Origin: a virus
Virus genome (UHGV): UHGV-0197997
Strand: one strand, 5' to 3'
DNA: 52,500 bases
Shown here one piece after another: positions 1,219 to 46,111 of the stretch. Every line of letters starts with the position of its first letter. The first letter of the stretch is position 1. The position numbers and the translations under genes were made by a program. The notes beneath the pieces are model-generated. The model was not told the origin of the DNA. It was given only the letters and a program-made list of their open reading frames with translations, and did not search any database.

Positions 1219-4200
1219 TTACGCGCCTGACACCCTGCCTTTTGCAATCTGGTGTACAAAATAAGATGACAACATCTCAATCATCACTTTGTTATGACTT
1301 GAGATAGTCGTTGGTATGCCAGACGCCAGGCGTGGGGAGAAACCATAGAAACGTCCGGACGAATACGGATTGGTAAGATAATCTTTTTCGTAGGCCTGAA
1401 CACAAGCCAGCAGAGCATTTCCGGTTGATACCCGTCGGACCAGCATCATCGTCAATGCAACGCTAACCGGAGTCGAAATGATCCCCCTTCGGCTTTCAGA
1501 AATAATGAAATCAATCCCCCGCAACCTGCCATCACCGCACAATCCCTGAAGTCCATAGTTGACGTTGTTAAACAGGGGCGTTCCGCCGAGTAACTCCGTC
1601 ATCATGAGGTATTCAGGCGCGAGGTCCATATCGTAGTTGTACCACCGGCTCCTTGCCAGGGAGGTGCTGACTGGCATCGAATCCAGCATGCTTGGCAGAT
1701 ATCGACCAATGGTGCTGCTATTGGTCAGATTCGTCATCACCGTGTTATAGCATGACTGGTAAGCTCCGCCAGTATCCATCCCGGCGTGTATTGCCAGCGC
1801 GACAAGCAGCATGCCGTAGATATTAATATTCACGGCGGCACTGACTGAAGATGGCGTATAGGTGTTCGGCACACCTCCTTTTGCTGCGACTGCTGTAACC
1901 ATTGCGTCAGCCCACGACTTAATATAAGGCTGCATTGCCGCCATTGTTGCAGTGTCACCCAAAAACTCAGCCGCACGATATACAGAAACACATGGCTTGA
2001 GTACCGGAGTGACCAAATCAGCAACATTAATAACTCCCTCCAGATAGCGGGCTCCGATATTAGTGCTTCGCCAGTTATCATCCCAGCACCGTTTAAACCT
2101 GGCCCATACTGCCGCAATATTAGGTGAGGGCTTTTGCAGTTCACGATACGCAAGATAACCCCACGGGGTATTAATATCATATGGCCCGGCATTCGAATCC
2201 ATACCGCCTATTCCAGCTGAGTCTCCATTCATCCAGAAGTCAGCAACCCCATCAAGCAATACTCTCAGCTTATTCTCAGCTTCTTTTACTGCAAAGTTAG
2301 GAAGCCTCCCGCCACGCGCAAAACCCACAGGCCGATTGTAAACTTTCTTCGCAAGCGTTAACGGGTCTGTTTCAGTTTCACTGGCATTCAGCCAGGCTTC
2401 AATGGTCCATGTCCAGTTTTTCTCAACCGGCCAGTTAAGAAATGAATAATCCGACAGGGATGAATATTGCCAGCCTGTGGTTACGCCCAGCGTAAACTCT
2501 GACGCGGCATTCGTCATCGTGATGCCTGTCGGTCTGGTTGGGCCCGCAGAGGTTCCATCCCTGTGAATATCCCCGTTTACAATGGTCGGCACATAGGAAA
2601 ACCTGCCGTTACCGGCTGTATTTCCGGTTGTGATTGCTGCAGCAGCGGTACCGGAATAGGCTGGAGTCGTCCCGTTTTTATAAATAACATTAGAGCTAAT
2701 AGTTGCTCCACACATCTTACCAACAGGAATATCCTCCAGGGCAGTCACCATGTTTTTCACAACGACGATTCCGTTTTTAAAAATGCGGAAGCGAGTGGTG
2801 GCCTTAATAATGCCTGCCGAATAAACGGCACTGGCGGCATTGTAGCCTGTGCGCTCAATCTCGGTAAAAAGCGGGCCGGTATTGATGACCTTCAGCGTAA
2901 CGTTGTAGGTGAAATACTCGATAACCTGAGCGCCTGCAGTCACGTAGCGATGCTGCGGGCTCAGCGTGCATCTGATACGGTTGATATCATCATTTTTAGC
3001 AGCATCAATGGATGTGAGGCCATAGGCTCCACCGGCAAAACCAAAGCGGTAATACAAATCACCCACTTTAATGTTATAACGCTTCAGGGCATCAGAAGGC
3101 GCGTAGTACTCCAGGCCTTCGGAATAGATCGTATCATCATAGCGATAACCAAAAACATCCACGTTATAATATTTTTTTTGTCCCGCCGATACGGAATCGA
3201 CGATCCACACGGCCCCCGTTTTGAATGAGCCATCAGGGTGATAACCTTCAGTTGACTGAAAGCGAAGGTTCACGAAATCATCTGCAGAAAATTGCGCATC
3301 AAACACGTTTCCTTCAGCGTCAGATACCTTAATGCAGTTGTGACCAAACACCATTCCTGCAGGGAAACTCACTTTTAACTCGACAGGACCACTGTAGTCG
3401 GTAGCCATGTCATTTACTACATCAGCAACAAAACGGGTAAAAGGGTTATTGTCAGTGTTCTGCCTGGAAATTCCGTTGTAATAAAGAATATCTGCGTCAA
3501 TGGTCAGATAATCGTTTACAGAAATTGTCGCAGGTTCGGCGCTTAATTTGGCAAGGTAAGCCGTTTTATATACTGATACATCGGTACTTCTGTAATAAAG
3601 ATGTACATCATCAAATGAGGCATAGAAATAGTTTTTAACGCCATCATCAGTAATGCTAAACCCTGCCCCCGTAATATCAGAATAGGGGAATGTTAGCTGG
3701 ATTGAGGTTGAGCCGTCAGGGTTAGAGTAAAGCGTGCAATATTTACCATCTGAGCCATACGCACCGGTGTTACCGGAAATAAAATCACCGGACTTGTCGA
3801 TAACGGCATAGGCAGTGATCGATTTATAGGTATTGATAAGCGGAACATTGGTAAATATTGCTCGGGCAACTGAATTTGTCTCATCAAACAAAACTGTTGC
3901 TGGTCTTAACTTTGCCAGTTGAACAGAGTGATATGGAGAGTTAAGTACATTATCAGCAAAGTATTCAGCCGGAAGTAGTTCTGCAATTACTGTTGTGACA
4001 CCGCTTTGCAGATGGGTTACTTTTAGTGTGTTTTTCTGGTTTCGGGCGTCAGAAGTTTCAGCAGCTGACAGGGAGTTAATGCGTAAAACAGATTCTTTCC
4101 CGACATTGACTACAGTGTCACCAGGCATTGAGATACTGGTAAACTTAGTTAGCGGAAGTGATGAGATTTCGCTAAGCAAAACATTAATGGTGCCAATTTT

Positions 4201-28038: not shown

Positions 28039-28114
28039 TGGTGCTGGTTGACGGAATCGAACCACCGACATCCTACTTACAAGGCAGGTGCTCTACCTAC
28101 TGAGCTAAACCAGC
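28039..28114 (-). tRNA. tRNA-Thr (anticodon UGU), phage-encoded
   Basis: Hand-folded cloverleaf: acceptor GCTGGTT/AACCAGC, D-arm GCTC-AGTAGGTA-GAGC, anticodon loop CTTGTAA, T-loop TTCGATT, encoded CCA; T-stem needs two wobble pairs; 5' end overlaps methyltransferase stop by 10 nt. Confidence 0.55.
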
Positions 28115-29154
28115 AAATTGCGCATTTCACTGACCGTCTGTTCAAACCGCTCGGTTTCCAGTTCAACGCCGATTCCACTCCGCCCGAGTAGAGCAGCTTG
28201 CTTTAGTGTGGAACCAGAACCAGCAAAGAAATCAGCTACGACCTCCCCCGGCCGACTGCTTGCAGTAATGATCTGCTGGAGCATATCGGCAGGTTTTTCG
28301 CATGGGTGCTTACCTGGGTAGAACTGAACAGGCTTATGAGTCCACACGTCGGTATACGGCACCGAGACGGAAACACTAAACGGCCTCCGCAGGCAGTGAT
28401 ACTCCTGCTGAAGTTCGCAGTATTTCCGGTTAAGAGATTGCCATGTTGCGACAAGCTGGTGATGGGGCTTAGCAAGTTCGTTTCGTGAGTGTTTATCTCT
28501 GGCAATTTGCTGGAACAACGTCTGCAATTTCAGGTAATCGGCTTCGTTCGGTAACTGCCACTGGCTAAGACCGAACCAGTGAGAAACCATGTTTTTCTTA
28601 CCTGTGGCAACTGTAATTTCTGCTGACGTTACTCCAAGAGATTCTCTGGCTTCCCGGAAATAGGAAATCAGTGGAGTCATGACATGCTGCTTGAGTTCAT
28701 TGCTCTTAGCAGCAAACCCATCATCTTTCGGATTATATGGCCCTTGATAATGATCGGCGAAAATGATGCGCTCCGTCGCAGGGAAATATGAGCGCAGGCT
28801 CTCTTTGCTGCATCCGTTCCAGCGCCCGGAAGGTTTTGCCCAGATAATATGGTTAAGCAGGTTAAAACGCTCGCGGACCAGTATCTCAATGTCCGCCGCC
28901 AGCCGGTGCCCGCAGAAAAGATACATGCTGCCCGAAGGTTTCAAAACCCGCCAGAAGTGGGCCAGACAACTATCGAGCCATCGCAAATAGTCATCATCCC
29001 CATTCCATTGATTGTCCCAACCGTTCGGCTTCACCTTAAAGTAAGGCGGGTCAGTAACGATCAAGTCGATGGAGTTATCTGGAAGCGATGGAAGAAATTG
29101 CAGGCAGTCAGCATTGATTAACTCAATACTGGATATTTTTACAGTATTTTTCAT
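28105..29154 (-). CDS. DNA methyltransferase, beta-class (N6-adenine or N4-cytosine), orphan
   Basis: DPPY motif (LIVTDPPYF) N-terminal to SAM motif DFFAGSGST; no adjacent restriction gene. Confidence 0.8.
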   Translation of the reverse strand: MKNTVKISSIELINADCLQFLPSLPDNSIDLIVTDPPYFKVKPNGWDNQWNGDDDYLRWLDSCLAHFWRVLKPSGSMYLFCGHRLAADIEILVRERFNLLNHIIWAKPSGRWNGCSKESLRSYFPATERIIFADHYQGPYNPKDDGFAAKSNELKQHVMTPLISYFREARESLGVTSAEITVATGKKNMVSHWFGLSQWQLPNEADYLKLQTLFQQIARDKHSRNELAKPHHQLVATWQSLNRKYCELQQEYHCLRRPFSVSVSVPYTDVWTHKPVQFYPGKHPCEKPADMLQQIITASSRPGEVVADFFAGSGSTLKQAALLGRSGIGVELETERFEQTVSEMRNLLV

Positions 29155-33925: not shown

Positions 33926-34395
33926 TCCTCCAGTACCATTTTAAGTTCGAAAGGCAAGTCGCCACCGCAATAGCAGAGTTGCCCCAGCTCTGACATGAGG
34001 CTCCATAGGGTCATTGACGAATAGCCATTTTCGTCAGTCGCCGGCGGCTCAAATTCACCAAATATTCCTGGCGCACGAGCTCGATTTTCATCGTGTTGGG
34101 CCTGCATAAACCTCAGGGAGATATCATTCAACTTCACCTTTACGATGCTGTTGAGGTTAACTGAAACCTCCCTGGTTAAAAGCGAAGTGGTGATGCTGAT
34201 ACCGCGGGAAACCCCGCGGGTAATCTTGATGGCCCCTTTTCTCTCCAGCGCCTTGAGGTGGGTTGCCGCCGCATTGGGGGACCGGCACCCCAACATGCCG
34301 GTCAGTTCGTAGGTGGTAGGCGGGAAACCATGCTTACGTTGGTACTCGATCAGGAGGTTCAGAACCTCCTGCTGCCTGAGAGTTAACTTCATCAT
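33922..34395 (-). CDS. LexA N-terminal-like DNA-binding protein without S24 peptidase domain
   Basis: MKLTLRQQEVLNLLIEYQRKHGFPPTTYELTGMLGCRSPNAAATHLKALERKGAI closely resembles LexA DNA-binding domain; C-terminal half lacks Ser/Lys peptidase motifs. Confidence 0.55.
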   Translation of the reverse strand: MMKLTLRQQEVLNLLIEYQRKHGFPPTTYELTGMLGCRSPNAAATHLKALERKGAIKITRGVSRGISITTSLLTREVSVNLNSIVKVKLNDISLRFMQAQHDENRARAPGIFGEFEPPATDENGYSSMTLWSLMSELGQLCYCGGDLPFELKMVLEE

Positions 34396-36479
34396 GCTGC
34401 CCGCTCCTGTTTGTTAACGCACATTTCTGGCAGATTGGCCCTAACCAGCGCCTCAGCGAACGGCGGCGGCACGGCGTTTCCGCAGCGCGCAACCTGCTTG
34501 TCCTTCGAATACTTCACGCCGCGGTAGTCCCGGTCGATGATGTACCACTCAGGGAAGCCCTGCGCGCGATAGAGCTCATGCGGTTGCAGCATGCGCATCC
34601 CGATATCAACAATTCGGAACGTAACGCCGTCAATATCCACCAGCCCGGTGCTGTCCTCCCCGCAGTATTCCCGCAGAAATGCCAGCACCTGCTGAGCGCG
34701 CTCTTCGTCGTAGTCCTCGACCGCCAGTGTCGTTTTAACCTCTCCAACATGCTGGCCCCCGGCGGTAATTGTCGGCATCGGCTCGTCAGCGCGCTGACCA
34801 TCACGACAGGTCCCACGCAGTTTGACCAGGTGGGATGAGACTATTGCGGCATCGGCTTTAGTGGTCATTGTCTGCAGCGGCTCGCTAACATCACGCGGGC
34901 GGCTCTGCCCTGCTCGCCCACCAACGCCAACAACCTGGGCTGTAACCAGTGCATGATGATCAATCGTCGTCACCGAGTGGGCGGGCTCACCCAGTCCTAC
35001 GCCGGCGCCCTGATAATTCCCGCCGTAGTGTTTAGCCAGGAACGCCCCGACAACAGCATGCTTTCCGCCACCAGCAACAACGGTACCCAGCGGTTTGTCC
35101 AGCCCTGGCACGCGAGGTGCCTGCCCTGGTCGTTCTCCGTATCCCATCTGAATCAACGTCGGCACAACCAGTTGCGATTTACCGCCGCCGCCGGCGGTGA
35201 TTGTTGCACTGGGCTCGTCGGCGCGATGACCGATGCTTGCGCCAAACTGGCGCGCAATGACCGGCGCAACGATACAGGCGCGGGACTCTTTCAGGATGGT
35301 GTGAGCAGGTTTATCCAGTGGCCGTGGCTTAGCCTGGTACTCGCTGCCACCATTTCCGGCCAGGAACGGCGCCAGCTCAGCTTCAACGACACCCAGTGCA
35401 TGACCATTCCCGCCCGGGCGTTTTGACGTGCCGGCGGTCACCGTAGGTACCGGGTCGGTAACTGGCTGCCCGGTGGCACCGGTGCGGAATTTTGTCAGGT
35501 GAGGTACCGCGATTGCGTACCCATGAGTTTTGGTAATGGTCTGTAGAGGATCGGCCAGGGCCTGCCCCCGAAAACAGTCGTATTTGCCACGGGTGGTTGT
35601 GTGGTTGCATTTCACAATGAATGGATCCGCGCTGTCGATAACGAAACGCTGAATGCCGCGGGCTATGCGTTTGAGCGTATTCTCTGCCAACGGCTTTTTG
35701 CGGTCGAATATCGACCGCGCGGAAATAGTCCAGTCGATGCATTCCGCCGCGGTGCGAAACGGCGCCAGCTTGCCTGCCTGCACCGCCGGCGATTTCGGAT
35801 CCCCGTGTGTAGCCTCCGGCCAGACAATAGGCTGGTCATCACGACGCATCACCATGAAGAATCTTTTACGGATGGTTGGGGTTCCAAGGTCGGATGCACG
35901 CAGTTCACGGCAATCCAGATCGTAACCAAGCCCCGAAATCAGCCGCTGAGCCTGCTCGCTTTCCAGCGAGAGCTCCAGAAATTCGCAGCACTCTACCAGC
36001 GCAGGATGATCAGCAGGAATGCCAGTTGTTAGCATGCCGACAAATGCCCGGAATGTTTCGCCAACGCGCGCAGGGTCTGGGCGCATTTCTGCCGCCAGCA
36101 GCGGGCCCCACGTTTTGAACTCCTCCACGTTCTCCAACATCATCACCCGTGGGCCAACATCCAGGGCCCAACGAATGACAATCCACGCCAGCCCACGGAT
36201 GGCTTTTTCTACAGGCTTCGCCCCTTTCGCCTTCGAGAAGTGGCGACAATCTGGCGAAAACCAGGCGAGACCTACAGGTTTGCCGCTGGTGGCAGCTGCA
36301 GGAGAAACATCAAACACGCTTTCGCAATAGTGCAATGTGTCAGGATGGTTAGTGCGGTGCATGGCCACGGCGTTCTCGTCGTGGTTAATAGCAATATCAA
36401 CGCTGCGCCCGATCGCCATTTCGATCCCGGTTGATGCCCCGCCGCCGCCAGCAAAATTATCAACAATCAGCTCACGCAT
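34392..36479 (-). CDS. DNA cytosine-5 methyltransferase-like, 695 aa, with repeated TAGG-containing internal motifs
   Basis: Motif I FAGGGGASTG, ENV motif, motif IV-like SPDCRHFS (DC instead of PC), C-terminal RCGNAVPPPFA; four internal repeats of the TxTAGG type. Confidence 0.75.
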   Translation of the reverse strand: MRELIVDNFAGGGGASTGIEMAIGRSVDIAINHDENAVAMHRTNHPDTLHYCESVFDVSPAAATSGKPVGLAWFSPDCRHFSKAKGAKPVEKAIRGLAWIVIRWALDVGPRVMMLENVEEFKTWGPLLAAEMRPDPARVGETFRAFVGMLTTGIPADHPALVECCEFLELSLESEQAQRLISGLGYDLDCRELRASDLGTPTIRKRFFMVMRRDDQPIVWPEATHGDPKSPAVQAGKLAPFRTAAECIDWTISARSIFDRKKPLAENTLKRIARGIQRFVIDSADPFIVKCNHTTTRGKYDCFRGQALADPLQTITKTHGYAIAVPHLTKFRTGATGQPVTDPVPTVTAGTSKRPGGNGHALGVVEAELAPFLAGNGGSEYQAKPRPLDKPAHTILKESRACIVAPVIARQFGASIGHRADEPSATITAGGGGKSQLVVPTLIQMGYGERPGQAPRVPGLDKPLGTVVAGGGKHAVVGAFLAKHYGGNYQGAGVGLGEPAHSVTTIDHHALVTAQVVGVGGRAGQSRPRDVSEPLQTMTTKADAAIVSSHLVKLRGTCRDGQRADEPMPTITAGGQHVGEVKTTLAVEDYDEERAQQVLAFLREYCGEDSTGLVDIDGVTFRIVDIGMRMLQPHELYRAQGFPEWYIIDRDYRGVKYSKDKQVARCGNAVPPPFAEALVRANLPEMCVNKQERAA

Positions 36480-37422
36480 GGCTCACCCCCTGCATGCTTT
36501 CAACCAGTCCACCAGCAATAGCGATGATTTCACTGGTGGGCATACGCTCCAGCCAGAGCTGGTTAATATGTGCTTTCAGCCTGTTTTGATGGGACAACTC
36601 CATCCCTTCAGCTCCTTCAACCTGTCGAAACAACAGCCCTACTTCCAATGGCCAGATACGTGATTCCGTCGCCGGTAATTCCACAGGCGCTGCAGGTGGT
36701 TCTACTGCCGCCGCCGGCGCTGTTACTTGTGCTGGAATATTGCCAACAGCAAACTGCGCCAGCCTCATGAATGCATGACCCTTAGCTTCCAGATCGGACC
36801 GGTGGATATAGCTGAAACGCTCGCCTCGCCATGACTTATCAAACACAACAATGGCACCAGCGAAAAATGCGCTGGTGGGCTTTTGCTTATCATCAGCAGG
36901 GATAAACCACGAAGGTAGATCGAATCCAATTCGACCACGAATAAACATGATGTGATCAGCATCTTCCGGCCACCATGTTTCGCTTGTTGCTGACTTCACA
37001 AGGTAAATGTAGCGACCGCCCTTTTCACGCTGCTCAGTGGTATAGTTCATGATATGAGCCATGCCGGTGATGGCTTGTTTTTCATGGTACTGCGAGCGAC
37101 TGTACGGCGGGTTAGCAAAGGCCGCGCCGCCGAGTTCTACCAGGCGACCTGACCAGTCCTGCGTCAGCGCATTGTCTTCAGCGGTGTACCATGCCGGGCA
37201 TTTTGCGTTGCTTTCGTCAGCGAACAGATCCAGAACCAACGGACCGAACATCGCGTTGATCCCCCAGAACAGTAGATCCGGAGTACGCCATTGATCCCCT
37301 ACATCTTTCAGGTAATGGGCGCTGCACTGGCGCTGTTCTTCAAGAGCCAGGCAATAAGGGCTGACAGTCTTAGCTTCGGTATTTTCTTCTTCGATCATCA
37401 TGTCCTGCACTTCCTGGATCAT
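36472..37422 (-). CDS. DNA N6-adenine methyltransferase (phage Dam-like)
   Basis: NPPY motif (FANPPYSRS); overlaps C5-MTase start. Confidence 0.7.
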   Translation of the reverse strand: MIQEVQDMMIEEENTEAKTVSPYCLALEEQRQCSAHYLKDVGDQWRTPDLLFWGINAMFGPLVLDLFADESNAKCPAWYTAEDNALTQDWSGRLVELGGAAFANPPYSRSQYHEKQAITGMAHIMNYTTEQREKGGRYIYLVKSATSETWWPEDADHIMFIRGRIGFDLPSWFIPADDKQKPTSAFFAGAIVVFDKSWRGERFSYIHRSDLEAKGHAFMRLAQFAVGNIPAQVTAPAAAVEPPAAPVELPATESRIWPLEVGLLFRQVEGAEGMELSHQNRLKAHINQLWLERMPTSEIIAIAGGLVESMQGVSHA

Positions 37423-37591
37423 AGATTTCCCCTGCGCTGGTCTGCTCGTACAAGTGCCCTCAGAAACCAGTAACGACGGTCAAAGCTAAACAGGCCCCTG
37501 GTGAGTAACGCAAAATTTCTGCGGAATAAAACATCGTGTCGCCACCAGGTTCGCCAGTGATTGAGCCGGAGGTGGCGGCGGATCGTTCTAA

Positions 37592-38053
37592 TTAATCGGA
37601 GCACAGGTCACCTCCGCAGTAATTACCTGCCAGCATAGAAATTCCGCTGGAATTCATCCCACTTTTGGCATTGCGTACACACTGATTTTTCATCCGCATA
37701 TAACGCTCTCTGGATTTAACGCTGCAGTTTGAATCGCACAGCTGCTGCCAGACCGTCGCCGCCCGGCGGAAGTAGCGCCGGCTTTCCAGGCTCCTCGCCA
37801 CCAGTTCCAGATTGCGCATTGCTTCGGAGGTATCCTCTGGCTGATTTTGATCATTTCCGTCAGGGTTACCGGCGACACGATAACGAAATACACTCGACGT
37901 TTGGGCGCTCGCCAGACGGCCCTCGTAATACAGGCGGTGTACCGCGTTCTTCACAGACATGGGGTTGCACTGAGGGAATGCTGCAATGATGTCCCGCATC
38001 ATCACCCCTGGGTTTTTCTCGATAAACTCGAATGCCGATTTCGCAATAATCAT
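37592..38053 (-). CDS. Hypothetical protein downstream of replication initiator
   Basis: Start taken at ATG (MIIAKSAFEF) overlapping upstream stop; no ATPase motifs. Confidence 0.4.
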   Translation of the reverse strand: MIIAKSAFEFIEKNPGVMMRDIIAAFPQCNPMSVKNAVHRLYYEGRLASAQTSSVFRYRVAGNPDGNDQNQPEDTSEAMRNLELVARSLESRRYFRRAATVWQQLCDSNCSVKSRERYMRMKNQCVRNAKSGMNSSGISMLAGNYCGGDLCSD

Positions 38054-38961
38054 CCCCGGAACCCCGCTGGAATTGTGTTTTGTACCGGACTTACTGAATT
38101 GATATCTCGTGGCTTGTTTTTGTCCCAAGCCTCTCTTGGCGGCCGGCCTTTAGCATCCCAGCGGATAGCGCTTTGCAGATAGCCTTCGAATTTTTTTGGG
38201 CCAAAGAGCGTCTCAGGTCGCATGTACTGGTATTGCTCGTCGTTTTCATGCCAGTGCTCATGCTTCAGGTCGATAACCAGTTTCAGGTCGCTGACGGCAT
38301 GTCCATCGCGTAGACGGGCACGGATGTTTTCCAGGGAGGATTTTGATTTCTGGAAACGGGAACCGCTGACCTGGTTCAGGTGGGCCAGAACTTCGATCGC
38401 ATGATCGGTAATAACCACTTCAGGATCCGTCTTATCGTCGGGATCCGCAGGAACCCGACAAGAAGGTTTTTTAGATGACGGATCTAATGACGGATCTAAT
38501 GACGGATCGCCTTCAACCATTGAGGGGTCCCCCGTCAATATTTGAGGTGGTGCAGACCCATTATTTGAGGCCTCAGATTTTGACCCTTCAAATTTTGAAC
38601 CCTCAATTTCTGAGGCCTCAAATTTTGATTGCTCCTTAGGAGGTGAATAGAAAAGTTTTGCCTCTGCAGCTGCACGCTCCAGCATGTCTACGTTGAGTTT
38701 GTAGACGTTCGAGTTATTCTTCCCACCAACCCGGCGCTCTTGTTTCTTCAGCCACCCTTTTGCTTCCAGCTTTTTAATAGCACTGCGTACGGTGTTCTCA
38801 CTCTTAGCACCGATCTGGCGCTGAATTGTCGTTACCGCGGGCCAGGACACGCCTTCATCGTTACTGAAGTCAGCCAGGCGGGCCATGACCGCTATTTCGG
38901 ATATGATCAGGCCTTTGAAAGCACATGCTTCCCAAACCAGACCGTGCAATTTACTGCTCAT
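38050..38961 (-). CDS. Replication initiator (O-like; N-terminal winged helix, conserved phage C-terminal domain)
   Basis: C-terminal LNQVSGSRFQ...IRARLRDGH...LKLVIDLKHEHW...YMRPETLFGPKKFEGY pattern; low-complexity repeat linker; SD GAGGG. Confidence 0.7.
   Translation of the reverse strand: MSSKLHGLVWEACAFKGLIISEIAVMARLADFSNDEGVSWPAVTTIQRQIGAKSENTVRSAIKKLEAKGWLKKQERRVGGKNNSNVYKLNVDMLERAAAEAKLFYSPPKEQSKFEASEIEGSKFEGSKSEASNNGSAPPQILTGDPSMVEGDPSLDPSLDPSSKKPSCRVPADPDDKTDPEVVITDHAIEVLAHLNQVSGSRFQKSKSSLENIRARLRDGHAVSDLKLVIDLKHEHWHENDEQYQYMRPETLFGPKKFEGYLQSAIRWDAKGRPPREAWDKNKPRDINSVSPVQNTIPAGFRG
38468..38630. repeat. Iteron-like direct/palindromic repeats inside replication gene (candidate ori)
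   Basis: 3 x 12-nt tandem repeat at 38468-38505 and ~5 copies of a TCAAA(A)TTTGA(G/A)G-like motif at ~21-bp spacing (38540-38630). Confidence 0.45.
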
Positions 38962-39130
38962 GGCTGCCCTCTACTTCCCTGAACTTACGTTTGAACTGAT
39001 CGAGTGGGCTAAAGCACTCATGGGGATACCCTTCTCGCAGGAAGATGACACGCTGCGTTTCTGGCTCCCAGCGGATGACCTTGACGGGCTTACCGTAGTG
39101 GTCTTTGAACTTCCGGTTAACTTCTCGCAT
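38951..39130 (-). CDS. Small ORF upstream of replication initiator (frame uncertain)
   Basis: 59-codon ORF with AAGG upstream; alternative frame ORF 38971-39318 in track; cannot decide without homology. Confidence 0.25.
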   Translation of the reverse strand: MREVNRKFKDHYGKPVKVIRWEPETQRVIFLREGYPHECFSPLDQFKRKFREVEGSHEQ

Positions 39131-39302
39131 AACGCCTTAGCCCTCCGGTTAAAGACCCCCACAACTCCACGCGCCCTACTGTGGTTACATTCGACCCACT
39201 TTCCGCCTACCATGCGCTCATACCGAAACGACGAAACACCCGGGACCGGGTACATCCGTAGTTGCGGTAAGTGAAGATTTACGATTAAATTGCTCATGCG
39301 GA

Positions 39303-39854
39303 TCATTTCTCCATACACGTTGATTTATCTGCCACGACGCCCGGAGCTGCACACTCGCGGGCGTCACTCTTTTCTGGCTGACAGAAGACGCGGAAAAGCA
39401 ACGTCAGATGTTCCTGCCATTTCGCCATCACCTGATAGCTGTTCTCCTCAATCTGCTCGCGTTCGGCCTGGTCAATAACACCGTCAGCTGTAGCTTTACG
39501 GAGATATTGCGAGTGCTTTCCGATCCACTCGATAGACTCCATCAGGCGATGGTTAATATCGGCGTTGTCCACATCATCAATATCTGCCAGCGGTACAAAG
39601 ACCCCGTTCGAGTGGCGCGCTATCGCATTGGCGATATGATTTGACCCACCAGCCCGCTGCAGGACCATTGCCCATCCGAGAGGAAAAATCTGATCTCCAT
39701 CGGCACGTAAGCGGTTAAACAATGCGTTTTCAGTAACACCCAGCCATTCCGCTGCTTCTACATAGCCGCCGTCCAAATCAGTGATCGTTTTTTTAATCGC
39801 AGCTACCAGCCAAGCCGGCTGCTTATCAACTTTCCATTCTGGTTCTATACCCAC
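39303..39854 (-). CDS. Regulatory protein at cII position (CP76/YdaT-like by memory)
   Basis: First gene after cro-like gene in early-right operon. Confidence 0.4.
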   Translation of the reverse strand: MGIEPEWKVDKQPAWLVAAIKKTITDLDGGYVEAAEWLGVTENALFNRLRADGDQIFPLGWAMVLQRAGGSNHIANAIARHSNGVFVPLADIDDVDNADINHRLMESIEWIGKHSQYLRKATADGVIDQAEREQIEENSYQVMAKWQEHLTLLFRVFCQPEKSDARECAAPGVVADKSTCMEK

Positions 39855-39882
39855 GGCTTACCCCCTACCTCTGTGGTTTCTG

Positions 39883-40113
39883 TTACACCCCTGAAGCGCT
39901 ATCGTTCTGATTAGCACCCTCGCCATAGAGCAACCAATGAGGATCGCAATGCAGGGCTGAAGATAATTCAATGATGTAACGGGGCCTCTTTGTTAAACCC
40001 GCCTCGATCGCTTGTAATGACTGCTGGGTCATTCCGACCAATTCAGCCAATTGCGCTTGTGAGAGATTCATCTCTTCACGTTTATTCTTTAATCTTTGAG
40101 AAATTGATTCCAT
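39883..40113 (-). CDS. cro: Cro-like HTH-XRE repressor
   Basis: 76 aa HTH (LSQAQLAELVGMTQQSLQAIE); divergent from cI across operator region; SD GGAGG. Confidence 0.75.
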   Translation of the reverse strand: MESISQRLKNKREEMNLSQAQLAELVGMTQQSLQAIEAGLTKRPRYIIELSSALHCDPHWLLYGEGANQNDSASGV

Positions 40114-40122
40114 AACACCTCC

Positions 40123-40181
40123 ACAGTTTTATCTGTATTTTTGAACAGATACTACTGTTTGTCAATCACAGTTTAAACTGT
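40123..40181. promoter_or_regulatory. OR-like operator cluster: three ACAG-N6-CTGT palindromes
   Basis: Sites at 40123-40136, 40145-40158, 40168-40181 (22-23 bp spacing) between cro and cI. Confidence 0.65.
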
Positions 40182-40210
40182 GACCATGAGGCCATGGGAA
40201 TGGAGGAGCT

Positions 40211-40843
40211 ATGAGCCTTGCAGAACGCGTAAAGCAAAAAAGAATCGAACTTGGTCTTACTCAAGAGCAAGCCGCTGAAAAGGCAGGAATAAGGCAACAA
40301 TCATGGGCCAGCATTGAAGATGGAAAAACTAAAAAGCCTCGCAACATTGTAGGAATAAGCAAAGCACTTAAGTGCGACCCAACATGGTTGATGAACGGTG
40401 GGCCTTTTATGGCTCTTGCCGATGTGAATTCAAGGAAAGTACCTTTGATCAGTTACGTCCAGGCTGGGGCATTAGCAGAAAAACACCCAATTGATGCATT
40501 TGATGGTAGCTTCGAATACATCATGACAGACCTTGATATTTCTGAGTTTACTTTTGCACTAAGGATAGAAGGTGATTCAATGGAGCCTGACTTTAAAGAA
40601 GGCGACATTATCATTGTCGATCCAGAGTTAGAGCCCGTTCCGGGCGAGTTTGTTGTTGCTAAAAATGGTGATAATGAGGCAACTTTTAAAAAGTACCGTC
40701 CTACATTTACCGATATTTCAGGCCGCCAGCAATATGAACTGGTCCCCCTTAATGACGACTACCCCACCATCAATAGCTCTGAATGCCCGTTGAAAATTAT
40801 CGGCGTAATGGTCGAACATAGAATTTACAGGCGAAAAAGGTAA
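40211..40843 (+). CDS. cI: CI-like repressor (HTH-XRE plus S24 LexA-type peptidase domain)
   Basis: N-terminal HTH; C-terminal GDSMEP motif and downstream Lys region typical of S24 autopeptidases. Confidence 0.85.
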   Translation: MSLAERVKQKRIELGLTQEQAAEKAGIRQQSWASIEDGKTKKPRNIVGISKALKCDPTWLMNGGPFMALADVNSRKVPLISYVQAGALAEKHPIDAFDGSFEYIMTDLDISEFTFALRIEGDSMEPDFKEGDIIIVDPELEPVPGEFVVAKNGDNEATFKKYRPTFTDISGRQQYELVPLNDDYPTINSSECPLKIIGVMVEHRIYRRKR

Positions 40844-40858
40844 ATCCTTCCTCACATG

Positions 40859-40881
40859 AACCGGCTAGCGCCGGTTTTTTT
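40859..40881 (+). terminator. Rho-independent terminator after cI
   Basis: CCGGC-TAGC-GCCGG followed by TTTTTTT. Confidence 0.7.
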
Positions 40882-40942
40882 ACGTCTTTAGTTTCATAAA
40901 AAACAATAAATTACAGTTTTTCAAGTAAACACCCCCACTCAA

Positions 40943-40990
40943 TACAGTTTTGACTGTTGACGAATTAACAGTTTTATCTGTATTATTAAT
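40943..40990 (+). promoter_or_regulatory. OL/pL-like operator-promoter region
   Basis: Two further ACAG-N6-CTGT sites (40943-40956, 40967-40980) flanking TTGACG with AT-rich -10 candidates. Confidence 0.5.
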
Positions 40991-41093
40991 CCATCAACAG
41001 CGAACAGGCAGGACGCCCACGAAGTAGCCGCCCGGGGCATACGAAGGCCGGGATGATTCGCAGGTATGAAAAAAGCGCCCCGTAGGACGCTTA

Positions 41094-45133: not shown

Positions 45134-45333
45134 TGACACATATGAAAGTGAAAGAGTTAGTTGCTGCAGCTAATGCTGCGGCACCTGACTTTCCACCAGC
45201 AGCAGCCCAATTAATGCGTGATCTCGCGTCAAGGCTGGATGTGACCTTCGTTGCCCTTACCGAGGCGATGGATCAGAACACAGCTATGGCTGCTTTGCTA
45301 TCAAACCAGAGCGGAGCTTGCAGCAATGGCTAA
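45133..45333 (+). CDS. Hypothetical small protein, 66 aa
   Basis: ATG overlapping upstream stop (TAATG). Confidence 0.4.
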   Translation: MTHMKVKELVAAANAAAPDFPPAAAQLMRDLASRLDVTFVALTEAMDQNTAMAALLSNQSGACSNG

Positions 45334-46111
45334 AAATTCAAAAGACGTATACGGAGCCAGTGGCAAGACGAACGTTCTGACGTTCGAGCCCGAAAAGCTG
45401 CACCTGGTAACCGATAAGACCCATCCGCTCTACGATGAGCGTATTCACCTGCCGATCGACGAAGGGATGGTACTGAATATCAAGGAGCTGGGTGTTCTGG
45501 AACCGATTGCTGTCTGGAAAGACCCTGAAAAGGGACTTACCTGTGTAGTTGCTGGTCGTCAGCGCGTTCGCCATACCCTGGAGGCAAATAAACTCCTTCT
45601 GAAAGAAGGCAAAGACCCACTGCTTGTTCCAGGCGTCGTTAAGCGCGGGTCAGCAAATCAGATGGCTAAATATATGGTCAGCGAAAACGAAATTCGCCGA
45701 CCTGACACACCGCTTGGGCGGGCTAAAAAAATGTCAGATGCTCTGGATCGCGGTCTTGATGAGGACGACATTGCGGTGTTGTTTGGCTGCAGCGTTCAGA
45801 CCGTGCGCGCCACCCTGTCTCTGCTTGATGCCACTCAGGCCGTTCGGGATGCGGTCGAATCTGGCACTGTCACCGTCTCTCAGGCGCGCCAGCTGGCATC
45901 AATGAAGCCAGAAGCACAGCGGGAGAAGGTAGCAGAAATCGAAGCGGCGACCGCCGGCACTACCGGACACGAAAAAACGCGCCGGCAGCGCCAGGTTCTT
46001 GGCGACGCAAAACCCCGCCTGAAAACTCGTAAAGACATAACTAAAGCACTGGAATCAGCCGAAGGAGAATTTGCCGCGGCTCTCCGCTGGGTGCTTGGGG
46101 AGAGCGTATGA
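45326..46111 (+). CDS. ParB-like nuclease domain protein
   Basis: N-terminal ParB/Srx-like region with GRQRV motif context; C-terminal HTH-like; start at MAKNSKD. Confidence 0.45.
   Translation: MAKNSKDVYGASGKTNVLTFEPEKLHLVTDKTHPLYDERIHLPIDEGMVLNIKELGVLEPIAVWKDPEKGLTCVVAGRQRVRHTLEANKLLLKEGKDPLLVPGVVKRGSANQMAKYMVSENEIRRPDTPLGRAKKMSDALDRGLDEDDIAVLFGCSVQTVRATLSLLDATQAVRDAVESGTVTVSQARQLASMKPEAQREKVAEIEAATAGTTGHEKTRRQRQVLGDAKPRLKTRKDITKALESAEGEFAAALRWVLGESV

Follow-up and report, generated by a model that had tools for sequence, protein, structure and literature searches.

In classical lambdoid genetics, the DNA-binding domain of the O protein is inherited together with the adjacent ori repeats, and the effector domain is exchanged. 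Lambda and the Stx phages carry iterons inside the initiator gene, four in the former versus six in the latter (PMC7466680). By inference from the sequence, P22 and phage L have their iterons inside gene 18, which codes for a distant O analogue; in phage L, six imprecise 11-bp repeats were deduced to be the origin from the sequence alone (PMC8022706). The arrangement of an origin embedded in the initiator gene is already known and is expected for lambda-like phages, and the element described here is another case of it. It was found in a stretch of 52,500 nucleotides (nt) of the virus genome UHGV-0197997, which in the following is called the window. According to comparative sequence analysis, positions 38417-38629 of the window are likely to be the replication origin of this prophage, situated where the prophage's initiator gene codes for a linker. 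The gene and the relevant parts of its protein (residues given as aa, amino acids) are:

38050..38961, minus strand: replication initiator gene, 303 aa (list of open reading frames (ORFs), Pfam, PHROGs)
38647..38961, minus strand: N-terminal winged-helix domain, presumed to bind the origin, aa 1-105 (predicted structure, Foldseek, tblastn)
aa 22-71 of the initiator: HTH_36 (Pfam)
38417..38629: nucleotide-level conserved block, candidate origin (ori), gene nt ~333 to 545, codons 111-180 (codon-position diversity)
38173..38391, minus strand: Phg_2220_C domain, aa 191-263 of the initiator (Pfam E = 2e-23, above the curated cut-off)
38053..38115, minus strand: C-terminal tail KPRDINSVSPVQNTIPAGFRG, aa 283-303, similar to the very end of DnaT, a primosomal protein of the host

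The locus shares with a lambda-type ori the position of the origin, here a candidate, inside the initiator gene, where it separates the parts coding for the DNA-binding N-domain and the C-domain; it likewise consists of several imperfectly palindromic repeats, the copy number of which differs among relatives. As in lambda, cI, cro, and cII precede the gene, which would be transcribed from pR, represented here by a pR-like promoter found in a consensus scan. Moreover, the N-domains are distantly homologous: a tblastn search of phage records aligned aa 25-101 (77 aa) of the initiator with the lambda-type O protein of a Stx phage at 39% identity. In contrast, the 11-bp core of the repeats recurs here with a period of 15 bp, whereas lambda possesses 19-bp units spaced by about 20-24 bp; the adjacent AT-rich tract of about 40 bp, which unwinds in lambda-type origins, has no strong counterpart; no P-type helicase-loader gene is found downstream; and the initiator, whose C-domain belongs to Phg_2220_C, gives no Pfam lambda O match. 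P22 and phage L differ from the locus in the repeat sequence, which is TGTCCAACGGA in phage L, and P22-like phages encode a DnaB-type helicase (gp12), which is missing from the phage of the window. No sequence relationship to gp18 was detected in the 364 matching phage records, among which eight were from Salmonella and P22 was not looked for by name.

The architecture of the initiator was deduced from an AlphaFold model, for which the input alignment comprised 19 sequences. The model contains two folded parts, namely the winged helix (aa 1-105) and a helical domain (aa 180-279); the linker (aa 109-183) is predicted to be disordered, with a predicted local distance difference test (pLDDT) value of about 30. 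All repeats are located at codons 112-163, i.e. in this disordered linker between HTH_36 and Phg_2220_C. The N-domain was modeled with pLDDT values of 73-91 as a helix-turn-helix with a beta wing. Its best Foldseek matches are the winged-helix DNA binders MarR, ArsR, and GntR; a Foldseek search with the whole initiator model returned only winged-helix matches of the N-domain. The PHROGs profiles found were phrog_428 ('replication initiation protein') for the initiator, phrog_391 ('O-like') for the N-terminus, and phrog_1701 ('DnaD-like helicase loader') for the C-domain. A preliminary description of this DNA had called the gene O-like, which is appropriate for its function and for the profile of its N-terminus, but not in the sense of membership in the Pfam lambda O family.

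Judged by profiles and homologues, the C-terminal Phg_2220_C domain is DnaD-like or replisome-organiser-like. Its relatives found by tblastn are proteins of Gram-positive phages, annotated as replisome organiser or replication initiation protein. The locus shares this domain with the organisers of the TP901-1, Tuc2009, and SPP1 G38P type, and several phages of this type also have their origin repeats inside the organiser gene. The differences concern the family of the N-terminal domain and the hosts; in addition, a helicase loader or helicase gene usually adjoins the organiser gene of these phages.

The linker DNA contains two arrays and two separate motif copies, which are:

38475..38510: three 12-nt units, each with a GATC, coding-strand form GATCCGTCATTA; candidate unwinding or Dam/SeqA-sensitive elements
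38535-47 (core 38535-45): further good motif copy TCAATATTTGAGG, in another reading frame, encoding the peptide PQILT
38558-70 (core ~38558-68): degenerate motif copy CCATTATTTGAGG, encoding the peptide SNNG
38571..38630: four tandem 15-bp units, candidate iterons, with the cores TCAGATTTTGA, TCAAATTTTGA, TCAATTTCTGA, and TCAAATTTTGA at 38573-83, 38588-98, 38603-13, and 38618-28

That iteron-like repeats are embedded in the initiator gene had been noted in the preliminary description; they are real and far beyond chance, and the gene is encoded on the minus strand. The 12-nt and the 15-nt array are the highest-scoring tandem repeats in the 52.5-kb window, in which no other iteron-like array was found. 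If at most one mismatch is allowed, the motif TCAAAWWTTGA occurs at nine positions of the window, and five of these nine are within 94 bp; relative to the background density, this clustering has a Poisson probability of P ~1.6e-13. The details of both arrays had to be revised. Three perfect 12-nt repeats had been proposed for positions 38468-38505. Tandem Repeats Finder reported 38475-38508 with a period of 12, 2.8 copies, 100% matches, and the unit ATGACGGATCTA; the third copy, ATGACGGATCGC, matches this unit at 10 of 12 positions. It is the 10-nt core ATGACGGATC which is present in three perfect copies at a 12-nt period, and the array starts at 38475. For positions 38540-38630, about five copies of a partially palindromic TCAAA(A)TTTGA(G/A)G-like motif had been proposed at a distance of roughly two helical turns. 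The motif was confirmed, but there are six copies, and the centre-to-centre distances are 23, 15, 15, 15, and 15 bp; the spacing of 15 bp corresponds to about 1.4 helical turns. Each of the six sites is a short imperfect palindrome, whose dyad symmetry comprises a core of 11 bp and up to 15 bp with the flanks. On the coding strand, the 12-nt array encodes DPSL-DPSL-DPS and the 15-nt array encodes SKFEA-SEIEG-SKFEG-SKSEA. The periods of 15 and 12 nt equal five and four whole codons; consequently, units can be gained or lost without a break of the frame. This is what is seen among the relatives, in which the copy number changes in 15-nt steps.

A protein search gave 1554 homologues, and searches with the locus gave 15 bacterial and 80 viral contigs. 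Two groups of genes were used to determine whether the DNA or the protein is conserved. Clade A is the window's type with 89-99% amino-acid identity and 42 distinct genes. Clade B has an identity of about 62% and originates from Salmonella, Kosakonia, Enterobacter, Citrobacter, and Kluyvera; here, 24-27 genes were examined. For the 42 distinct gene sequences of clade A, the diversity at third codon positions was 0.032 in codons 111-180 versus 0.303 outside (Mann-Whitney p = 4e-19), and at codon positions 1 and 2 it was 0.032 inside the block versus 0.039 outside. The variable sites of the block are distributed over codon positions 1, 2, and 3 in numbers of 13, 13, and 14. Synonymous and non-synonymous substitutions occurred at a ratio of 12:36 in the block, which is close to the neutral ratio, versus 275:91 outside (Fisher p = 1.8e-11). 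The flat variation over the codon positions and the ratio of 12:36 indicate that the constraint acts on the DNA and not on the protein. By this estimate, about nine in ten mutations in the block are removed whatever their codon position, and the peptide is free of purifying selection. A site-by-site map of clade A demonstrates that the onset of the quiet block coincides exactly with the first repeat unit, polymorphism being dense directly upstream. The 12-nt array has accumulated essentially no substitutions in this clade, and the motif copies at 38535-47 and 38558-70 are both conserved across it.

Clade B gave a corresponding result: the diversity at third positions drops from 0.4-0.6 to 0.06-0.2 in the linker. 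When the clades are compared with each other, the same residue is encoded by the same codon at 0.70 of the linker positions versus 0.51 elsewhere (p = 6e-10, the comparisons being non-independent), and the codon identity is about 0.8 where the repeats and GATC sites are located versus 0.3-0.5 in the N-domain. Given that the pattern is replicated in two clades, comparison of the genes indicates that the block is a cis-acting DNA element overlapping the coding region.

The preliminary description had made its proposal dependent on the repeats not being absent from functional homologues, and they are present: the array occurs in the same linker of 42 clade-A and 24-27 clade-B genes and of SfII_41, YeP1 O, and phiP27 L17. 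In every gene examined, the core TCA(A/G)AwwYTGA is confined to the linker, where 4-8 copies follow each other in a strict 15-nt phase; one or two further copies are located 33-48 nt downstream of the phased array. In clade B, the linker contains three to eight pentapeptides of the SKSDA or SKSDP type, and the DNA units are nnGTCAAAATCTGAC. In these units the codons for Ser, Lys, Ser, and Asp are fixed; the cores are separated by the first triplet, which is free to vary and stands for A, P, V, T, L or G. Two core copies are out of frame, namely the one encoding PQILT in the window and one encoding LQNLD in phiP27 L17.

The more distant relatives allow one to track the inheritance of the domains. 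Proteins that carry the annotation replication protein O or primosomal protein in SfII, phiP27, and several Escherichia and Klebsiella phages contain the N-domain plus linker (aa 1-148) with an identity of about 50%, as tblastn searches revealed. SfII_41, phiP27 L17, and YeP1 O share with the initiator this N-domain and a TCA(A/G)AwwCTGA array at 15-bp phase in the linker. The module is located at the following positions:

2501-3442 of SfII (NC_021857): initiator module
2501-3427 of phiP27: initiator module

The N-domain and linker of SfII_41 are 80-97% identical to clade B on the DNA level. The homology ends at the end of the linker and returns only for the last ~25 nt; in between lies an unrelated C-domain, which we take to resemble the C-terminal domain of lambda O. 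In phiP27 L17 the module is joined to yet another C-domain, and DnaC-like and DnaB-like genes follow. As far as can be read from these alignments, the N-domain and the linker move as one module between different C-domains. The records of SfII, phiP27, and YeP1 contain no annotated origin feature, and a report in which the origin of one of these phages had been mapped by experiment was not found. Public annotations of the module disagree and include 'primosomal protein', 'helix-turn-helix domain-containing protein', 'GntR family transcriptional regulator', and 'conserved phage C-terminal domain-containing protein'. Among named phages, Klebsiella phage Kp4866-6, which is unannotated, comes closest with 85% DNA identity; the complete genomes of E. 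coli gave a single partial match, which is to the C-domain.

The constraint at the DNA level, the motif copies out of frame, and the joint inheritance of N-domain and linker are what one would expect for an initiator together with the sites it binds; lambda, P22, and phage L are the precedents (PMC7466680; PMC8022706). In agreement with these findings, the earlier proposal that the repeats are the probable origin of the phage is supported by the comparison of the relatives. With respect to the mode of operation, we infer that the N-domain binds the repeats, where the DNA unwinds, what methylation contributes, and how the helicase is recruited. The N-terminal winged-helix domain would bind the six TCA(A/G)AwwYTGA sites at 38535-38628, five of which are at 15-bp phase, and the bound initiators would assemble a compact nucleoprotein complex, a counterpart of the O-some of lambda. 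The strands would open in the adjacent conserved segment at ~38459-38510, where a short A/T tract accompanies the three GATC 12-mers. Next, the initiator would use its C-terminal DnaD-like domain and its DnaT-like tail to recruit the host helicase or primosome. As in lambda, transcription that starts at the pR-like promoter would cross the site, and the disordered linker peptide would tolerate whatever the DNA dictates. The features assigned to strand opening are:

38395..38508: GATC cluster with seven sites in 114 bp, five of the seven being invariant in clade A
38460..38490: 30-mer with the lowest stability in the block, AAGAAGGTTTTTTAGATGACGGATCTAATGA; a weak candidate for the opening site, although the best one (nearest-neighbour stability scan)

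The GATC cluster is the densest of the window, in which the next best one has 4 sites per 120 bp. Its Poisson probability is P = 5e-7 per 120-bp window and 2e-4 to 0.03 after correction. The three GATC sites that are placed at an exact 12-bp spacing in the tandem 12-mers are invariant in 42/42 clade-A genes, and GATCCGTCA is conserved in clade B too. The GATC density is 15.3 versus 5.5 per kb in clade A; it is weaker in clade B (8.7 per kb), which has only two to three sites. In the Asp-Pro pairs of the linker, the Asp codon is GAT in 173 and GAC in 39 cases; elsewhere in the genes, the corresponding numbers are 167 and 217. The cluster suggests a sensitivity to Dam/SeqA, with an excess that is weaker in clade B. 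GATC-initiated 13-mers of oriC and GATC heptamers of P1 oriR are Dam-sensitive unwinding elements. The locus resembles them in having short tandem GATC units adjoining the candidate initiator sites plus a Dam-type methyltransferase; it differs in that the 12-mers are not AT-rich, DnaA boxes are missing, and only clade A has a strong excess of GATC.

Several observations weigh against the interpretation of the block as an origin. Spaced by 15 bp, successive sites are positioned on nearly opposite faces of the helix. Classical iterons are about 20-22 bp apart, and the iteron origins of plasmids have direct repeats of ~22 bp, i.e. about two helical turns, which is not the period seen here. The composition and nearest-neighbour stability scans did not detect a strong AT-rich tract of the lambda kind: the GC content is 35% in 38460-38499, the lowest local value for 40 bp is 30-35%, and the segment 38460-38490 falls merely in the least-stable 5% of the window. 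A DnaA box within one mismatch of the consensus does not occur in the gene, and the window-wide count equals the chance expectation. Pfam identified in the initiator only HTH_36, Phg_2220_C, and two sub-threshold families, and no match to the lambda O family. The searchable literature contained no study of the origin, DNA binding or replication of this initiator family. In addition, tandem units can share codons by recent duplication without selection, a segment that has spread recently could have a low diversity at all codon positions, and the acidic, serine-rich linker could have a role of its own at the protein level.

Some of these objections can be extended to alternative explanations of the block. 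According to the first, it is a conserved junction of modular exchange in lambdoid phages or a recently recombined segment, and its low diversity reflects recent ancestry. A young segment would indeed be characterized by low diversity at all codon positions and by a neutral-looking substitution ratio; moreover, the end of the linker is where the C-domain is swapped, and these phages are pervasively mosaic. We nevertheless consider this explanation improbable. The same dip in diversity occurs independently in clade B, and between the clades the codon identity reaches 0.70-0.80 in the repeat and GATC parts versus 0.3-0.5 in the N-domain, although the linker peptides differ. The block starts at the first repeat unit and not at a domain border, and a junction leaves both the phased palindromic motif and its out-of-frame copies unexplained.

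A second alternative, to which we assign a small probability, is that the block is a different cis element, for example a group of sites at which the initiator or another regulator controls transcription through the gene, a Dam/SeqA-sensitive region, or a hairpin of mRNA or single-stranded DNA. It overlaps with the interpretation as an origin, because initiator sites in the initiator gene are what such an origin consists of. The significant GATC cluster and the methyltransferase genes of the phage are compatible with it, and so is the predicted fold of the array:

38563-38623: hairpin-forming inverted repeat with 30-nt arms (single-stranded DNA fold)

This hairpin of 61 nt has a dG of -26 kcal/mol and a z value of -6.3; most relatives have z values of -4 to -7. 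However, no compensatory change was found in 19 distinct clade-A sequences, and two variable stem positions break the pairing in 15/19 and 12/19 of them. The stem positions change in parallel in units 1 and 4 (GAGGCC to GATGCC), which is the logic of direct repeats, and the long form is not predicted for the majority subtype of clade A. A selected hairpin or cruciform as the reason for the conservation was rejected in view of the lack of covariation and the broken stem pairs; as judged from the sequences, the hairpin is probably a by-product of tandem palindromic units. Regulatory signals were not detected either: the block contains no sigma-70-like promoter or intrinsic terminator, and the region 37000-41000 has no Rfam match at E <= 1. 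We also considered an overlapping gene on the opposite strand:

38475-38639, plus strand: antisense ATG-initiated ORF of 54 aa, overlapping the block in every relative (31-100 aa in relatives)

In the frame of this ORF, the substitutions are 7 synonymous to 23 non-synonymous, and it is probably not coding.

The last alternative, that the repeats serve the protein as a disordered, acidic, serine-rich pentapeptide linker acting as a flexible spacer or DNA-mimicking docking segment, the DNA repeats being a by-product of slippage and the origin being located elsewhere, is very improbable: the repeats are in frame and give SKFEA-type or SKSDA-type pentapeptides in all relatives, the 15-nt steps in copy number are typical of slippage, and the initiator shares the C-terminal tail of DnaT, whose acidic linker docks on PriB (PMC13377028), but the substitutions, being even over the codon positions and mostly non-synonymous, signal an unselected peptide and a selected DNA, the variable residue of the pentapeptide falls on the DNA spacer whereas Ser, Lys, Ser, and Asp use fixed codons, the motif is also used in another frame in which it encodes unrelated peptides, and the window lacks a second iteron-like array.

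If the block is the origin, the question arises of how the helicase is brought to it, and here the C-terminal tail of the initiator deserves attention. The tail matches PDB entry 6aep, 'Primosomal protein 1' (the extreme C-terminus of DnaT), at 14 of 21 residues, and a profile match to DnaT residues 131-179 supports the likeness. An hhalign comparison with DnaT gave an alignment limited to the last 28 residues; of these likenesses, the match to 6aep carries the most weight. The motif IPAGFRG is retained on SfII_41, whose C-domain differs; it is absent from phiP27 L17, after which DnaC-like and DnaB-like genes follow, and from YeP1 O. The tail may be a docking peptide for the host primosome. 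A recent study of preprimosome structures makes no statement on a binding partner for the DnaT tail (PMC13377028). One can go further and postulate a distinct class of lambdoid origins, for which one protein of the phage suffices and a phage-encoded helicase loader is dispensable. In such a system, the DnaT tail (RDINSVS...IPxGFRG) and the DnaD-like domain would bring the host primosome or DnaB-DnaC to the closely packed sites at 15-bp phase; the GATC 12-mers would be the place of opening, and their methylation by the phage's methyltransferase would gate the firing of the origin. We regard this model as speculative and, in its entirety, as rather unlikely.

The genes surrounding the initiator, and further features of the window, are:

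40211-40843, plus strand: cI-like repressor
40137..40165, minus strand: pR-like promoter TTGACA-17-AAAAAT upstream of cro (consensus scan only)
39883-40113, minus strand: cro-like gene
39303-39854, minus strand: CII-like gene
37592-38128, minus strand: PerC-like transcriptional activator (phrog_1324)
36472..37422, minus strand: DNA methyltransferase gene, Dam-type families (phrog_111, phrog_33262)
28105-29154, 34392-36479, and 36472-37422, all minus strand: three DNA methyltransferase genes
45251-46111, plus strand: ParB-like gene (phrog_1033), in the region left of the immunity genes

The gene order is cI, cro, cII-like, DUF4222 (a small gene), and initiator; the initiator, which comes after cI, cro, and cII, occupies the place where lambdoid phages keep O and ori. 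The pR-like promoter, as predicted from its consensus elements, would transcribe through cII and the initiator, hence across the candidate origin. Downstream of the initiator follow the PerC-like activator, two methyltransferases, a repressor-like gene, RusA, a regulator, an HNH endonuclease, and a Q-like gene. No gene for a phage helicase, a helicase loader (P or DnaC-like) or a primase was found in the early operon.

The PerC-like gene, as called, overlaps the 3' end of the initiator by 79 nt and occupies the position of lambda P. The same order of initiator and PerC-like gene is seen in SfII, where the latter was identified by Pfam; YeP1 has an uncharacterised gene there. The neighbourhoods of SfII and YeP1 both contain a methyltransferase gene and RusA as in the window. 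SfII deviates from the window in its unrelated C-domain, and phiP27 deviates in its other C-domain with the DnaC-like and DnaB-like genes behind it. The methyltransferase gene in the same position is annotated as 'dam' in SfII and as 'DNA adenine methylase' in YeP1. Assigned to its families by profile, the Dam-type methyltransferase of the phage could be the putative methylator of the block's GATC sites. Among the three methyltransferases of the window, one is of Dam-type, one has 695 aa and a C5-type N-terminus, and the third has 349 aa; this is an unusually heavy load for one prophage.

The analysis narrows the likely origin of a widespread prophage group to about 210 bp. The hosts of this group, which is related to the Shigella phage SfII, are Klebsiella, Raoultella, Enterobacter, Kosakonia, and Salmonella, and the only names given to its initiator in current annotations are 'conserved phage C-terminal domain-containing protein' and 'GntR family transcriptional regulator'. 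The block is a clean example of a cis element that is written into a disordered protein linker: the peptide evolves neutrally and the DNA is constrained. The test for synonymous constraint could find origins in the initiator genes of other phages. An initiator that acts solo and possesses a DnaT-like tail offers a starting point for understanding helicase loading by such phages. If the class of single-protein origins proved true, the tail would represent a docking peptide of a portable kind, from which the binding partner of the DnaT C-terminus could be learned.

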